Shown here: positions 3,456-31,512 of the stretch, piece after piece
How positions within the stretch are numbered: position 1 is the first letter of the stretch
Layout: the number at the start of each line of letters is the position of its first letter
UHGV virus genome: UHGV-0051534
Length of the DNA: 37,595 bases
Direction: 5' to 3' (one strand)
Source: a virus
Made by a program: the position numbers and the translations under genes
The notes under the pieces: model-generated
Told to the model about the DNA's origin: nothing
Databases searched by the model: none
Seen by the model: only the letters and a program-made list of their open reading frames with translations

Positions 3456-3612
3456 TATCAGCCCTCCCATATCTCTCGTTATCGTTGGCCACATCGCGAG
3501 CTTCTTTGCTGACGAAAGCCCACTTAATGCCTTCCTGTAAGGTGCGGAACTTCCAGCTCATGAATCCGCATGCAGTAACGCAGTACCAACCGTTGATGAT
3601 TTTCCACTGCAT
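3445..3612 (-). CDS. small hypothetical protein, first ORF of leftward early transcript (55 aa)
   Basis: ATG 3612 with GAGG upstream; translates MQWKIINGWYCVTACGFMSWKFRTLQEGIKWAFVSKEARDVANDNERYGRADNER; stop overlaps the next start; below the 60-aa track threshold. Confidence 0.3.
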   Translation of the reverse strand: MQWKIINGWYCVTACGFMSWKFRTLQEGIKWAFVSKEARDVANDNERYGRADNER

Positions 3613-5917: not shown

Positions 5918-6699
5918 ACAACGTTTTTACCGCGATACAAAACCGTGACGGAGAAGCCCTTTCTCGCATGTCAGGTTATGAGCATCAGTACGTCAACAAT
6001 GACAATGTGGTGAACATGTCAGCAGAGAGGCTTGTTGATGCCCTTTTTAAACAGCTGAAACAACTGTTTCCGGCGGCAGTGGTAACCAACCTGAAGACGC
6101 CAGAGCAGGAAGTTGCTGCAAAACAGCAGTGGATTGCTGCGTTTGCCGAAGGGGGGATCCGAACCCGTGAACAGGTTTCTGCTGGTATGCGCCACGCCCG
6201 CGCCAGTGAATCTCCGTTCTGGCCGTCTCCAGGGCAATTTATCAAGTGGTGCAAAGACAGCAAGATGGTTCTTGGCGTCACCATTGACGATGTGATGGCG
6301 GAGTTTCACCGGTACAGCAAGGAAAAAAGTTTATATCCTGGTGGTTCCGAAAGATTCCCGTGGCGACATCCGGTTATGTACTGGGTCGTATGTGATACCC
6401 GCCGTGCAATGTATCAGCGCCAGCTTAGCGAGATTGAGGTTGAGAAACACGCACGCAGGCTGCTCGATGATTGGGCGAAAAAGGTGGCTTCCGGACAGCA
6501 GATACCCGATCCGGTGATCAGCATACAGGCAAAGCCAGAGCCCATGAGTACGCCTCCGGACACAGGGAGAGACGTTTACCATCCACCAGGGCGAAGTTTC
6601 GGGTGCATGCCTAACGCCGCCACCCTTGGGGGAATAACACCGGCGCAGTGGCTGATGGAGGAATACAGGCGGGGAAAGGCGGCAGGATTTATCAAGTAA
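5899..6699 (+). CDS. P: replication protein P-like helicase loader
   Basis: EQVSAGMRHARASESPFWPSPGQFIKWCKD aligns with lambda P EQVNAGMRVARRQNRPFLPSPGQFVAWCRE (recalled from memory); start is ATG 5899 or GTG 5914 overlapping the O-like stop. Confidence 0.8.
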   Translation: MGGFLVNNVFTAIQNRDGEALSRMSGYEHQYVNNDNVVNMSAERLVDALFKQLKQLFPAAVVTNLKTPEQEVAAKQQWIAAFAEGGIRTREQVSAGMRHARASESPFWPSPGQFIKWCKDSKMVLGVTIDDVMAEFHRYSKEKSLYPGGSERFPWRHPVMYWVVCDTRRAMYQRQLSEIEVEKHARRLLDDWAKKVASGQQIPDPVISIQAKPEPMSTPPDTGRDVYHPPGRSFGCMPNAATLGGITPAQWLMEEYRRGKAAGFIK

Positions 6700-27575: not shown

Positions 27576-30050
27576 ATGAGACAGGAATGTATACAAGCGG
27601 TCCAGCAGGCGGCGCAGCGCACGTTAACGGCGCGAGAAATACAGAACATTGAAGACCGCATTTATCGAAATATGCGCTCCATTGCTCGTGATGACCCGAT
27701 GTCGTGGCGACAACTTTCCGAATCAGAACGGTTGTATCGTGCAGCACAATTGGCATCTGAAGAATTACAGCGAGAAGCGGCATTAAAGAAACGTCGTGTG
27801 GCCCTCACTATAGCCGCACGTCAGAGATTGGATAAATTTATCAATAGCTATCAAGGGGCTGATGGGAAACTTGGCGCTCTTAACCGTACTATTGCTTTTA
27901 ATGCAGACGGTAAATCGAATTTCCTCTCTGTTGAATCCAGAACAAAAGCCACTCGTGATTATGCATTGAGTCAATTGCAGGAGGCATTTGAAGCAGTTGA
28001 TCCTCGCTTTTTTGGCCTGTTTGAAGATGAAGCGGGCGTGCGTGACCTGGTATATGAAATGCGAGGGCAAAATACTGGCAATGCTAAAGCAAGAAAAGGT
28101 GCTAAGGCGTGGAGAGAAGTGACAGATCTACTGCGCCGCCGGTTTAATGATGCTGGTGGGGACATTGGCTATCTCGAAAACTGGGGGATCCCTCAACATC
28201 ATTCTATGGAAAAGGTTGGGGCGGTATCAAAAGATAAATGGGTTAGCGATGTTATAGGTAAGCTGGATCGCAAATATTATACCCGAGCCGATGGACAACT
28301 GATGAACGATGCCGAGTTGTCTGCATTTCTTGGAGAGGCTTATAACACGATCGCTACTGGTGGGCTGAATAAGCTTACTGATACCGGAATGCGAATTTCC
28401 GGCGTACGTGCTAACCGTGGTAATGCATCACGACAGATACATTTCAAAGATGCAGATTCCTATCTGCAATATCAGCAACTTTATGGCGATCGCTCTCTAT
28501 GGGAAATCATGGTCGGTCACCTGGAAGGTATCAGTAAAGATATTGCGCTGGTGGAAACATATGGCCCAAACCCCGATCATGTTTTCCGCTCTCTTCTTGA
28601 TCAGGTTAAGGCAGAAACGGCAACAGCTAACCCGAGTAAAACCGGTAGCGTCGAGCGTCTGGCGAACAAAACAGAGAACTTGTACAACTTTATTTCCGGA
28701 AAAACACAGCCTGTAGCGAATCCGCACATCGCGCGATGGTCTGACAATATCCGCAACTGGCTGGTTGCCAGCAGACTCGGATCCGCGTTGCTGTCATCGT
28801 TCTCTGATCTTGGAACCATGTATCTGTCTGCGAAGGTTACCAACCTTCCAATGAACCAGCTATTTCGCAACCAGCTTGAAGCTATGGACCCAACGAACCG
28901 TACTGAGCTTGCGCGGGCGCGCCGCGCTGGCCTGGCGATGGAATCTCTACTTGGCAGCGTTAACCGCTGGGCGATGGATAATATGGGGCCGTCTGTGTCT
29001 CGTTGGGCGGCAACGGCGGTAATGCGTGCCAGTGGGCTTACAGCATGGTCAGATGCGCACAAGCGCGCCTATGGCGTAACCATGATGGGAAGCCTGGGAG
29101 AAGTAGTGTCACGGACACCAGACCTTCGTAGCCTCGATGACTCTGATTTTCGTATCCTGAAAAGTAAAGGGATTACTGACACAGACTGGAGCGTATGGAA
29201 GCTGGCGCAACAGGAGGACTGGGGGAACGGTAATAATACGATGCTGACACCGGAAAGCATTATGCGTATCCCTGATTCAGCAGTTAAACATCTTGGTGAG
29301 CCTGAACGCGTGAAATTTGAGGCAATGCGTAAACTGCTCGGTGCCGTAACTGAAGAAGTTGATATGGCTGTTATTACACCGGGAGCACGTGAGCAACTGA
29401 TAACCGGTTCTGGTATTCAGCGTGGAACATGGAAAGGTGAATTAACGAGAAGTGTTTTCCTGTTTAAATCGTTCCCTATCTCGGTTGTTATGCGTCACTG
29501 GTCACGCGCTATGGGTATGCCGTCTGCTGGTGGGCGTGCGGCATATATTGCGACGTTTATTGCCAGTACGACCATTCTTGGCGCTTTGTCGCAGCAACTT
29601 AACGACCTTGCGTCTGGTCGTAATCCTCGAGAGATGACAGGAGAAGATGCCGCAAAATTCTGGCTTGGTGCTCTACTGAAAGGTGGTGGTCTTGGCCTTT
29701 ACGGTGACTTTTTATTGTCAGATCACACTAGGTACGGAAGCGGCGCGCTGGCGTCGATGCTTGGCCCGGTAGCTGGTCTGGTTGATGACGTAGTGAAGAT
29801 TGCTCAGGGCATACCGTTAAATGCTGTGGAAGGGAAGAGTGAGCAGACTGGTGGTGATCTGGTGAAGCTGGGGAAAGGTTTGATGCCTGGTGCGAATCTC
29901 TGGTACTTGAAGGCGGCTCTCGATCACATGATCTTTAACCAGATGCAGGAGTATTTTTCACCAGGCTATTTGCGTAAAATGGAGCAACGTTCGAAGAAAG
30001 AGTTTAACCAGACATACTGGTGGCGACCTCAGGATGTCACTCCGCAATAA
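27576..30050 (+). CDS. large internal virion / ejection protein (gp16-like)
   Basis: 824 aa; last large gene of the ejection-protein block. Confidence 0.5.
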   Translation: MRQECIQAVQQAAQRTLTAREIQNIEDRIYRNMRSIARDDPMSWRQLSESERLYRAAQLASEELQREAALKKRRVALTIAARQRLDKFINSYQGADGKLGALNRTIAFNADGKSNFLSVESRTKATRDYALSQLQEAFEAVDPRFFGLFEDEAGVRDLVYEMRGQNTGNAKARKGAKAWREVTDLLRRRFNDAGGDIGYLENWGIPQHHSMEKVGAVSKDKWVSDVIGKLDRKYYTRADGQLMNDAELSAFLGEAYNTIATGGLNKLTDTGMRISGVRANRGNASRQIHFKDADSYLQYQQLYGDRSLWEIMVGHLEGISKDIALVETYGPNPDHVFRSLLDQVKAETATANPSKTGSVERLANKTENLYNFISGKTQPVANPHIARWSDNIRNWLVASRLGSALLSSFSDLGTMYLSAKVTNLPMNQLFRNQLEAMDPTNRTELARARRAGLAMESLLGSVNRWAMDNMGPSVSRWAATAVMRASGLTAWSDAHKRAYGVTMMGSLGEVVSRTPDLRSLDDSDFRILKSKGITDTDWSVWKLAQQEDWGNGNNTMLTPESIMRIPDSAVKHLGEPERVKFEAMRKLLGAVTEEVDMAVITPGAREQLITGSGIQRGTWKGELTRSVFLFKSFPISVVMRHWSRAMGMPSAGGRAAYIATFIASTTILGALSQQLNDLASGRNPREMTGEDAAKFWLGALLKGGGLGLYGDFLLSDHTRYGSGALASMLGPVAGLVDDVVKIAQGIPLNAVEGKSEQTGGDLVKLGKGLMPGANLWYLKAALDHMIFNQMQEYFSPGYLRKMEQRSKKEFNQTYWWRPQDVTPQ

Positions 30051-30059
30051 GGAAGTGTT

Positions 30060-30233
30060 GTGTTTTTAATTATTTTGAGTGTGATAATTTCTGGTGGATT
30101 GTTATTTATTGACCGCTACAAATATTTTCTTAACCCTCAGACTCAAGCTATTTGCTGGTTCATCTTTGTTGTGCAGGGAGTAGTTCTTGTTGCAAGCCTT
30201 ATTGAGGGGAGGCCTCTTATTTTTACTGGGTAA
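30060..30233 (+). CDS. small hydrophobic protein (58 aa, putative membrane protein)
   Basis: GTG 30060 with AGGAAG RBS 5 nt upstream; translates VFLIILSVIISGGLLFIDRYKYFLNPQTQAICWFIFVVQGVVLVASLIEGRPLIFTG (two hydrophobic segments); AT-rich; below track threshold. Confidence 0.3.
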   Translation: MFLIILSVIISGGLLFIDRYKYFLNPQTQAICWFIFVVQGVVLVASLIEGRPLIFTG

Positions 30234-30245
30234 ATAGGTGACTAC

Positions 30246-30542
30246 ATGCAAGCTATAGGATTCATTGTTTATATCGTCGTTGGTCTTTTTCAGTTGGCAG
30301 CAATTATGGCTGGGCTTGAATCATGGTGGGGATTGCACTGGATAATTGCAGCCCCCATTGCTTTCATCGTGAGCTATATTCCATTTGTTGGAGCGATTGT
30401 TGGTATGGTTGGCGCTGTGGATGTATGGCGGTGGGAGTGGTGGCAGGCTGGCCTTCTCTTCTTTGGTGGGATCATCTTTGCTATTGTCTGCGGTGGAATG
30501 TCATCATTTTTCGAATGGCTATCATTCAGAAAAAGAGCGTGA
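30246..30542 (+). CDS. small integral membrane protein (98 aa)
   Basis: AGGTGA RBS; three to four hydrophobic segments, Trp-rich; stop codon lies inside palindrome copy 2. Confidence 0.5.
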   Translation: MQAIGFIVYIVVGLFQLAAIMAGLESWWGLHWIIAAPIAFIVSYIPFVGAIVGMVGAVDVWRWEWWQAGLLFFGGIIFAIVCGGMSSFFEWLSFRKRA

Positions 30543-30550
30543 CATGTCAC
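30539..30550. repeat. perfect 12-bp palindrome GTGACATGTCAC, copy 2
   Basis: Identical to 10309-10320; overlaps an upstream TGA stop in the same register and is directly followed by a terminator. Confidence 0.8.
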
Positions 30551-30576
30551 AGGCCGCTTTCGCGGCCTTGTTTTTA
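30551..30576 (+). terminator. rho-independent terminator
   Basis: Hairpin AGGCCGC-TTTC-GCGGCCT followed by TGTTTTT. Confidence 0.6.
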
Positions 30577-30735
30577 ACGAATGCCACCGCCGCCCGGGCG
30601 GGAATCCGCAGAACGCCCACCGCAGCGGGAGCCGTCAGCAGCAGTATCGCTGTCGTGCTGACAGCGACCGGCAAAGGCCTGAGTTGAAGCTACCAGAGAC
30701 AACAAAACGAACAGTGCAGCAAATGCTTTTTTCAT
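30574..30735 (-). CDS. small secreted peptide (53 aa) with Sec-type signal peptide
   Basis: ATG 30735; MKKAFAALFVLLSLVASTQA-FAG has n-region, hydrophobic core and AxA-like cleavage site; mature part about 32 aa with two Cys; plausible promoter TTGACG -17- TATAGA upstream. Confidence 0.4.
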   Translation of the reverse strand: MKKAFAALFVLLSLVASTQAFAGRCQHDSDTAADGSRCGGRSADSRPGGGGIR

Positions 30736-30805
30736 TGTGAAATTTCCATCTATAAGCCACCTCAATGTGGCGTCAATGAGTGTAGCACTGACTTTTGTTT
30801 CGTCC

Positions 30806-30829
30806 ACAAAAAAGCCCGCGCTGCGGGCT
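30806..30829 (-). terminator. rho-independent terminator after moron 2
   Basis: Minus-strand hairpin AGCCCGC-AGC-GCGGGCT followed by TTTTTT. Confidence 0.6.
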
Positions 30830-31353
30830 TACCAAAACTTGTACCACGGGGATTTATCCTTCAATGGACAATCCTTCCATCGTGTGGCCAACCATTCATA
30901 TTCTTTAAAATATGTGTTTATGTTTTCTTTTTCTCTAATAGCTTGTATAAGAGGTAGCGCAATCTGATAGTTATTTACAACGGAGCTGTAAAATACTTCC
31001 TTAATCATGGTCTCATCATAAGTTTTCCGCTTCACGCTCACAGCCATGCGTTCGTAGAAACCTAGACAGTAAATTATTTCTCTCTTCTCTATCTTTTCTT
31101 CATCCGTAAGATCAGCCTGCCCATTGCTTGGATACATATAAGAGCGGAATGATTTGTTCGACTCGTGAATGCGGCGCATAGTAGATAGGCCTTTCTTATA
31201 ATCTACATCAAACCTGCTTTCACCAAGGAATACTGAAGTGTGTACTTTTCTCGCTGTATTTACATTATAAATAATAGTAGCGATAGCTATGAACAAGCCA
31301 AGCGAAACCGCGACTGCACTTACGATTTGAGCCACAGCCATGGCAAATTGCAT
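30829..31353 (-). CDS. moron 2: N-terminally membrane-anchored protein of unknown function
   Basis: 174 aa from ATG 31353 (GTG 31368 possible); N-terminal TM helix AMAVAQIVSAVAVSLGLFIAIATIIY then soluble domain; about 37% GC; opposite strand to structural genes. Confidence 0.5.
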   Translation of the reverse strand: MQFAMAVAQIVSAVAVSLGLFIAIATIIYNVNTARKVHTSVFLGESRFDVDYKKGLSTMRRIHESNKSFRSYMYPSNGQADLTDEEKIEKREIIYCLGFYERMAVSVKRKTYDETMIKEVFYSSVVNNYQIALPLIQAIREKENINTYFKEYEWLATRWKDCPLKDKSPWYKFW

Positions 31354-31385
31354 TTCTTCACTTAACACAAACTGTCTCCAGACAT

Positions 31386-31409
31386 GAAAACGGGGCCTGA
31401 TGGCCCCGT
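31386..31409 (-). terminator. candidate terminator/attenuator upstream of moron 2
   Basis: Minus-strand hairpin ACGGGGCC-ATCA-GGCCCCGT followed by TTTT. Confidence 0.4.
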
Positions 31410-31497
31410 CATTAAACTATCCGAATGTTAAACGCCTTCGTACTCGTCAAATTTTCTCATGTGGGCTCCTCCTGTATCGGTGCCTAATCGCTATGGA

Positions 31498-31512
31498 TCA
31501 CCCGTAAGGTAA
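31498..31512. promoter_or_regulatory. operator-like inverted repeat TCACC-CGTAA-GGTAA
   Basis: 5-5-5 motif between the antirepressor and moron 2. Confidence 0.35.

Follow-up and report, generated by a model that had tools for sequence, protein, structure and literature searches.

A mobile moron cassette in an epsilon15/phiV10-like prophage carries the gene for a small, predicted exported peptide of a phylum-spanning family

Results and Discussion

A minus-strand gene under purifying selection

The virus genome UHGV-0051534, analyzed here as one stretch of 37,595 nucleotides (the window), is an epsilon15/phiV10-like (Uetakevirus-type) prophage of E. coli. Its minus strand holds a short open reading frame (ORF) that encodes a protein of 53 amino acids (aa), MKKAFAALFVLLSLVASTQAFAGRCQHDSDTAADGSRCGGRSADSRPGGGGIR (MKKAF...GGGIR), with two cysteines, C25 and C38. 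The original prediction, made from the letters of the window, had described this ORF as the gene for a secreted peptide and had found a longer, overlapping ORF on the plus strand less convincing. The two overlapping frames are:

30574..30735, minus strand: coding sequence of the 53-aa precursor, 53 codons, with ATG at 30735-30733 and TAA at 30576-30574
30385..30687, plus strand: antisense ORF of 100 aa, not a gene (see the frame comparison below)

The gene is already annotated, and morons for small envelope proteins are a known kind. E. coli EFF60 carries the same 1.3 kb at 99.9% identity, and there the Prokaryotic Genome Annotation Pipeline (PGAP) has annotated exactly this ORF as WP_000708858.1, while related records name the product 'transmembrane anchored protein' (gp43 of TL-2011b, Orf11 of phiv142-3). 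The protein also gave a full-length match to PHROG 14503 (residues 1-53 on a 53-position profile, hmmscan E 2.3e-40), which is placed in the category moron and labelled 'membrane associated protein'. PHROG 14503 and the RefSeq records represent the peptide's own family, with many entries 100% identical to it, and they hold a generic name only; the cleavable signal, the motif and the spread beyond the Enterobacterales that we describe below are not recorded in them. In all, 57 close clusters were found for the peptide, and homologues in other phyla extend down to about 45% identity.

Conservation of the two frames was compared by aligning the window with 13 homologous loci from other genera of the Enterobacterales and from Tolumonas, whose proteins are 67-84% identical to the query and whose silent sites are saturated. 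In the minus frame the proportions of synonymous (pS) and nonsynonymous (pN) differences over the whole ORF were 0.70 and 0.19, giving a pN/pS of 0.27, and for the mature part of the protein the ratio was 0.19. The plus frame, on the other hand, gave a pN/pS of 1.3-1.65 and is interrupted by stop codons in 10 of the 13 loci. Among copies that encode an identical protein, which form 33 nucleotide haplotypes, all 22 variable sites fall in codon position 3, a set that is biased toward such variation as it was chosen by protein identity. The plus ORF lies in the exact antisense register of the minus ORF, with codon position 2 facing codon position 2.

The plus ORF is the longer of the two and is called by some phage annotators (PHROG 25977), and it could be argued that it is the real gene, or that the region is a noncoding spacer or terminator region in which the minus ORF arose by chance. 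Its pN/pS and its stop codons speak against this, as does the position of its 5' half, which falls beyond the edge of the conserved, mobile segment, and the minus-frame protein is kept across phyla where the DNA is not. We regard the plus-strand gene as refuted and the chance that this alternative holds as negligible. The minus-strand gene is real and its protein is under purifying selection; the outcome that the original prediction had named as speaking against it, conservation of the plus frame, is the reverse of what the alignment showed.

Two variants of the gene model were rejected. A 77-aa version from GTG 30807 would start inside the upstream terminator, and its in-frame extension is unconserved or closed by stop codons in relatives. 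An upstream mini-ORF, ATGGAAATTTCACAATGA (MEISQ and a stop), is preceded by a Shine-Dalgarno (SD)-like GAGGTGG and has a TGA that overlaps the main ATG; in most homologous loci its ATG is missing or its frame is open-ended, and the GAGGTGG is the 3' arm of a conserved hairpin.

Predicted export and processing of the precursor

The precursor is predicted to be divided into two parts:

30670..30735, minus strand: signal peptide, codons 1-22 (MKK, AFAALFVLLSLVA, STQAFA), with a predicted signal peptidase I (SPase I) site between AFA and GR
30577..30669, minus strand: mature 31-aa peptide GRCQHDSDTAADGSRCGGRSADSRPGGGGIR, with a predicted disulfide from C25 (30663-30661) to C38 (30624-30622)

The first part has the n/h/c layout expected from the sequence of a Sec substrate of SPase I, with MKK, an uncharged hydrophobic core of 13 residues and STQAFA followed by G, and of the 471 ORFs in the window that start with Met and are 40 aa or longer, only 6 passed a crude signal-peptide filter. 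Among close homologues the hydrophobic part varies freely yet stays hydrophobic; C25-G49 is almost invariant, and across the Enterobacterales this holds for nearly the whole mature peptide. This was extended to 77 distant family members with the motif near the N-terminus, where A or S is found at -5 from the first Cys in 56, A or S at -3 in 59 and G at -2 in 70, which corresponds to AxA, the predicted cut and then G-x-C; a hydrophobic stretch lies directly upstream in 66 of them. Of the 48 members in which the motif is distal, 40 have a hydrophobic segment at the N-terminus, 13 of them with a lipobox-like site; in longer relatives a signal peptide, a lipobox or a transmembrane segment precedes the motif in every case. 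The predicted signal-peptide architecture, including the small residues at -3 and -1 of the cleavage site, is conserved family-wide, in agreement with the Sec signal peptide and AxA-like site first proposed for this protein.

We infer that the precursor is exported by Sec and cleaved by SPase I after A22. Cleavage there would leave 31 aa rather than the approximately 32 first estimated, with two cysteines as anticipated, and a C25-C38 disulfide would close a ring of 14 residues. The computed mass of the mature peptide is 3058.36 Da in reduced form and 3056.34 Da (monoisotopic) with one disulfide. AlphaFold2 models have a helical N-terminus (residues 2-15/22), and with an alignment of 41 sequences the predicted local distance difference test score of the mature part rises to 73-82.

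Processing as a lipoprotein by signal peptidase II was considered and rejected, as the E. coli protein reads F-A-G-R-C, in which two residues separate the Cys from the small residue, and is without a lipobox; a true lipobox, further upstream, occurs only in some cyanobacterial relatives.

The N-terminus could instead stay uncleaved and tether the peptide to the inner membrane (N-in, C-out) as an MgrB-like regulator of a sensor kinase or a transporter. This would fit the name 'transmembrane anchored protein' given by NCBI and the label of the PHROG family, and the protein has a superficial likeness to MgrB in its length of about 50 aa, in the MKK that precedes a hydrophobic helix and in its two cysteines on the periplasmic side. 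However, the helix of MgrB stays as an anchor, whereas the conserved AxA and G of the peptide predict cleavage, and no homology or other sequence similarity between the two was found. The h-region is only about 13 residues long, and across phyla it is the small residues at -3 and -1 and the following G-x-C that are kept, not the helix sequence. Cyanobacterial relatives have a lipobox or a long linker in place of the helix, which argues that the helix is a targeting device rather than part of the functional unit. A tethered regulator is therefore, in our view, a poor explanation, and the database name is probably misleading for a peptide that is predicted to be cleaved and exported.

Candidate promoter, leader hairpin and terminators

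The following elements flank the coding sequence:

30806..30830, minus strand: intrinsic terminator of the upstream DUF4760 gene and left edge of the cassette, AAGCCCGCAGCGCGGGCTT and a T run
30779..30806, minus strand: candidate promoter, with a -35-like TGGACG at 30806-30801, a 16-nt spacer and an extended -10, TGcTACACT, at 30787-30779
30749..30776, minus strand: promoter of the original prediction, TTGACG at 30776-30771, a spacer of 16 nt and TATAGA at 30754-30749
30756..30771, minus strand: 5' leader hairpin GCCAC-ATTGAG-GTGGC, recognized by covariation, about 7 nt past the -10-like box
30745..30747, minus strand: SD-like GGA, 9 nt before the ATG, read from the sequence
30551..30568, between the convergent genes: hairpin AGGCCGC-TTTC-GCGGCCT, followed by a good T run when read on the plus strand but by no more than TGTG on the minus strand

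Since the DUF4760 gene ends in a strong terminator, the peptide gene needs a promoter within the next approximately 70 nt. The sigma70-type promoter first suggested, TTGACG and TATAGA at a distance of 17, is present as far as the two hexamers go, but the spacer is 16 nt and the positions are not conserved in the 13 other homologous loci. As TATAGA is without the T at position 6, our consensus scan left the pair unreported. TTGACG overlaps the conserved 5' hairpin, and a transcript started from this pair would begin downstream of the only SD-like GGA. The consensus scan gave no passing site upstream of the peptide gene; a TA...T box with a TG extension is nevertheless plausible, and in 11 of 14 loci a hexamer of this form keeps the same spacing to the hairpin. 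From this candidate the predicted start would lie near 30772, at the foot of the hairpin, and a purine-rich element GG(A/T), AGG or GAG is found at the SD position in 14 homologous loci. The TGcTACACT box thus seems the likelier promoter, together with a 5'-terminal hairpin that may stabilize the mRNA.

The leader hairpin is preserved by compensatory variants in relatives (GCCGC/GCGGC, TTGCC/GGCAA and CTGC/GCAG). In the alignment 81% of the cells are paired, as compared to 26-35% after a shift of the partners by 1-2 columns; four of the five pairs have double-sided changes, and the observed score was reached by none of 500 shuffles. In loci L004-L016 the hairpin stands at the same position, kept by structure and not by sequence. 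An outer stem that would join the -10 region to the SD region appeared in some RNAfold predictions only, with weak z-scores, and was discarded; it is perhaps not transcribed. An Rfam scan of 30000-31500 returned nothing meaningful.

The hairpin at 30551-30568 is annotated as a terminator in phiV10. A T run past this hairpin in the direction of the peptide gene is present in relatives L004, L005, L012 and L015.

The gene moves as a cassette

The gene and its signals form one segment that is shared between otherwise different surroundings:

30539..30831: constant cassette of 293 bp, comprising the terminator, promoter region, gene, hairpin and palindrome GTGACATGTCAC

The cassette is 98-99% identical in TL-2011b, EC.W1-9, phiv142-3, HEMP4 and others, whereas the flanks differ. 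In 80 IMG/VR contigs that encode the identical protein we distinguished at least 10 classes of upstream and at least 12 classes of downstream flanks, with breakpoints at the outer edges of both hairpins; the upstream hairpin is kept while the sequence past it differs. The upstream minus-strand neighbour is a DUF4760 gene here, a gene for a YafO-family toxin in TL-2011b and a DUF2335 gene in Klebsiella phage BUCT711. Cronobacter prophages have no extra moron, and the peptide gene directly follows a conserved 85-aa gene that is found upstream of the tailspike gene in all of these phages. In Pectobacterium the gene sits in a different type of prophage, beside a gene for a MuF_C-domain protein and tail genes. 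In phiV10 (NC_007804.2) only the terminator and the last approximately 7 codons are left (3501-3562, corresponding to window positions 30535-30596), which reads as the scar of a deletion or replacement with one breakpoint inside the ORF.

Between 422 and 497 of 5,426 complete E. coli genomes (about 8-9%) carry the cassette, in up to three copies, and prophages of Klebsiella, Cronobacter, Salmonella and Pectobacterium also carry it. A homologue is present at 2104-2265 on a mobilizable K. pneumoniae plasmid of 3,360 bp (NZ_CP138754.1), whose other annotated genes are all mobilization genes (MobC, MbeD), and such cargo suggests that the peptide gene is useful by itself. Further copies were found between IS26 copies on an IncF/IncR plasmid and on Rahnella megaplasmids.

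Phage morons were defined in HK97 and HK022, and bor and lom of lambda are examples. The peptide gene has the same features: it is a single accessory gene between conserved phage modules, with room for its own promoter and a terminator on each side (hairpin and T run at 30830-30806, hairpin at 30551-30568), it is present or absent among close relatives with variable neighbours, its GC content deviates (57% over the ORF vs 34-42% in the DUF4760 gene) and its product is predicted to be located in the envelope. It differs in that the product is far smaller (31 aa when mature) and is neither a lipoprotein nor an outer-membrane barrel, and in that the cassette occurs also on plasmids. The assignment to a moron region made in the original prediction is thus supported, and, as judged from these comparisons, the cassette is mobile.

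The palindrome GTGACATGTCAC at 30539-30550 is perfect and overlaps the TGA stop codon of the convergent 98-aa gene. It is retained at the cassette edge beside many unrelated downstream sequences in IMG/VR as well as in L007, L008 and L016, and it may mark a boundary for recombination or serve to bind a protein.

A large family with an invariant scaffold and a variable patch

A pattern scan of one genome per species detected relatives in 57 species, including Enterobacterales, Tolumonas, Vibrio, many Hyphomicrobiales (Mesorhizobium, Rhizobium, Agrobacterium, Devosia, Methylobacterium and Bradyrhizobium), cyanobacteria (Dolichospermum, Anabaena and Nostoc), Bacteriovorax and a metagenome-assembled genome of Polyangiaceae. 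Among 1.84 billion representatives, 356 clusters were detected with a profile at E <=1e-3. A profile search in a 90%-identity collection gave at least 1,221 clusters, all of them named 'transmembrane anchored protein' or 'hypothetical', and none of these clusters carries a Pfam domain.

The mature E. coli-type peptide reads C-x4-D-x-A-x-DGSRCG-x-R-[AS]A-x2-RPGG, and the logo of 189 distinct sequences is C-x4-[D/Q/N]-x-A-x-[D/N]-G-S-R-C-G-x-R-[A/S]-A-x2-R-P-G-G. In these sequences C25, A32, G35, S36, C38, G39, R41, G48 and G49 are invariant or nearly so, and entropy peaks at ring positions 26-29. Most members are about 50 aa long and end just past GG. In other arrangements the motif is found at the C-terminus of linker-rich lipoproteins, in an N-terminal position ahead of a transmembrane segment and a cytoplasmic domain, or in two or three copies; SH3_3 or PG_binding domains are rarely beside it. 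Taken together, the product of the peptide gene appears to be the enterobacterial, mobile-element-borne form of a phylum-spanning extracytoplasmic mini-domain.

Two subfamilies stand out among the longer relatives. In one (P0075, P0095, P0097, P0118, P0125, P0134, P0136, P0169 and P0186) the motif comes between a signal peptide and 'GRNPDTDW', and a single transmembrane helix then leads to a conserved cytoplasmic domain of some 150 aa; such proteins would be held in the membrane, with the motif as their periplasmic head. The other is a four-cysteine variant, CxCPY-[ND]-x-A-x-NGSRCG-x-RSA[YW]SRPGG-x2-P-x-C[YF], which larger secreted proteins (P0119, P0177, P0195, P0116, P0123, P0141 and others) carry once, twice or three times; it has no Pfam family, with only a sub-threshold match to DUF6719.

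The ring could alternatively be a small Ca2+-binding loop of the DxDxDG/Excalibur type, and the peptide would then serve in structure or in ion binding and not as a protein ligand. D30-x-A-x-D34-G35, with a cysteine closing it, looks like DxDxDGxxC, the four-cysteine variant has D/N-x-[A/D]-x-N-G-x-x-C, and one relative has an Excalibur-like segment (E 0.13, below the cutoff). As in Excalibur, a short extracellular module has an Asp/Gly turn that ends in a disulfide-closing cysteine and occurs alone or joined to envelope domains. However, the peptide has a much shorter ring, the middle ligand position is Ala in 188 of the 189 sequences, and the position equivalent to Glu12 of the EF-hand is an invariant arginine. 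The D-G-S turn may also be explained as the turn of a beta-hairpin. Membership in Excalibur (PF05901) was rejected on the basis of the central Ala and of hmmscan, where neither Excalibur nor any other Pfam hidden Markov model matched the peptide at E <=10, and we find a Ca2+-binding role hard to credit.

The peptide and 100 of its longer relatives are without a family in the Pfam, NCBIfam and PADLOC libraries; the anti-phage defence profiles of PADLOC gave no match to the peptide at E <=1, and a sequence profile search of the PDB gave nothing at E <=10. We found no paper that deals with the motif or the accessions, or that uses the name in a phage context. Outside the prophage context, no conserved gene neighbours were detected in the 57 species by all-against-all BLAST or by a Pfam census of 150 flanking ORFs, and no phage enrichment was seen outside the Enterobacterales. 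In one lineage the gene stands stably between bacA/uppP and ffh.

Possible mode of action in the envelope

From these observations the following course of events can be outlined. The cassette, an autonomous moron at the end of the virion/injection operon, on which it converges, would be transcribed in the lysogen, probably from its own weak sigma70-type promoter just past the terminator of the preceding gene. The mRNA would open with a small 5' hairpin and be translated into the 53-aa precursor, which would be exported by Sec and cut by SPase I after AFA22. In the periplasm the 31-aa product would be oxidized, in a DsbA-dependent manner, to the C25-C38 ring, and the rigid conserved scaffold would expose its variable ring residues, 26-29, to a protein of the envelope or to an incoming protein such as an enzyme. 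The gene, its export and processing and its nature as a cassette, taken jointly and leaving the mode of action aside, are in our judgement highly likely to be as described. That the peptide is a small soluble ligand or inhibitor, which changes a property of the cell envelope of the lysogen, is the mode of action that we prefer, as a tentative suggestion.

Several points weigh against this outline. The TGcTACACT candidate has 8 of 12 consensus matches and lies under the threshold of the scan, and the hairpin after the stop codon is followed here, in the direction of the gene, by UGUG instead of a U run. When transcripts of phiv142-3 in serum and in lysogeny broth were compared, orf11 was not among the significantly up-regulated genes (PMC7724020). 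A conserved neighbour was absent in the 57-species search and no structural or sequence analogue turned up in our searches, and the step to a ligand or inhibitor would follow from the pattern of conserved and variable residues only.

Among known periplasmic proteins, Spackle of T4 is a phage exclusion protein, and Ivy and PliC/MliC are enzyme inhibitors with disulfide-closed loops. Like these, the peptide is predicted to be a soluble Sec-exported periplasmic product, and its gene lies beside genes for injection proteins; the likeness serves as a lead only. By analogy, the predicted disulfide-constrained loop of the peptide could face a target enzyme. In contrast to this likeness, no similarity in sequence or fold was found and the peptide is 3-5 times smaller. 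The small Iap peptide of phage D3 is a further comparison for a factor that acts in exclusion or conversion.

A role in superinfection exclusion or serotype conversion, as raised in the original prediction, would mean that related phages are stopped as they come in, by a peptide that blocks their injection machinery or one of their envelope enzymes in the periplasm. In the Enterobacterales every examined chromosomal copy lies in a prophage, the locus between the injection-protein genes and the tailspike gene is a classical site for such genes, and ring residues 26-29 differ among the phage-borne copies. However, the family is abundant in alphaproteobacterial and cyanobacterial chromosomes without phage context, there are plasmid copies, and PADLOC gave no match. 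Copies on plasmids and, in alphaproteobacteria and cyanobacteria, in housekeeping contexts of the chromosome speak against a role that is specific to phages only, and we consider exclusion or conversion improbable.

A more general form of the ligand or inhibitor reading would make the peptide the mobile-element-borne representative of a class of mini-proteins of 26-31 residues that spans phyla and has so far gone undescribed, its members being exported by Sec and closed into a ring by a disulfide. In these an invariant scaffold (C..A..GS.CG.R....GG) would display a hypervariable patch of four residues, in the manner of a miniature canonical inhibitor or ligand, and phages and small plasmids in Enterobacteriaceae would spread the peptide for protection or remodelling of the envelope, e.g. 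by blocking an envelope-attacking enzyme of an incoming phage or of the host. In this full form the proposal is speculative, and we think it rather unlikely.

A class II microcin or bacteriocin was also considered for the locus and rejected. The leader is of the Sec type, the genes around the locus encode phage injection proteins, a DUF4760 protein and a Bro-N protein, and a double-glycine leader with an adjacent ABC exporter and an immunity gene was not found at the peptide locus.

As compared to the existing annotation, what is new is the proof of the reading frame and the reassignment of the product from a 'transmembrane anchored' protein to a peptide predicted to be cleaved and exported, together with the corrected candidate promoter and leader anatomy, the cassette boundaries and the membership in a large unnamed mini-domain family. 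The cassette is present in about one of every 11 complete E. coli genomes and its product is known by a generic name only. As the family, with its more than a thousand clusters over Proteobacteria and Cyanobacteria, has no Pfam, PDB or literature record that we could find, a function, once found for the peptide, would annotate a large family at once; it might also partly explain the fitness effects reported for this prophage group. Seen as a cleaved, exported mini-domain, the peptide is a concrete and cheap experimental target.

Neighbouring genes

The cassette is bordered by the following genes:

30829..31368, minus strand: DUF4760 gene (PHROG 2284) with low GC, whose product has an N-terminal hydrophobic segment; one of several interchangeable morons at this site
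30246-30542, plus strand: gene for a small hydrophobic protein of 98 aa (PHROG 3075, E 2e-54), with a sub-threshold holin-like Pfam match (E 0.027)
30060-30233, plus strand: gene for a small hydrophobic protein of 57 aa, with no family matched

The genes for the 98-aa and 57-aa proteins close the virion/injection operon, and the former adjoins the cassette in Klebsiella and Cronobacter phages too. In phiv142-3 (MN187550.1), a closely related prophage of avian pathogenic E. coli, the peptide gene orf11 has another small gene as its neighbour, orf10 (52 aa, 6498-6656). It was this neighbour, and not orf11, that the study of phiv142-3 dealt with, and its deletion was reported to lower serum resistance and the expression of K1 capsule genes (PMC7724020).

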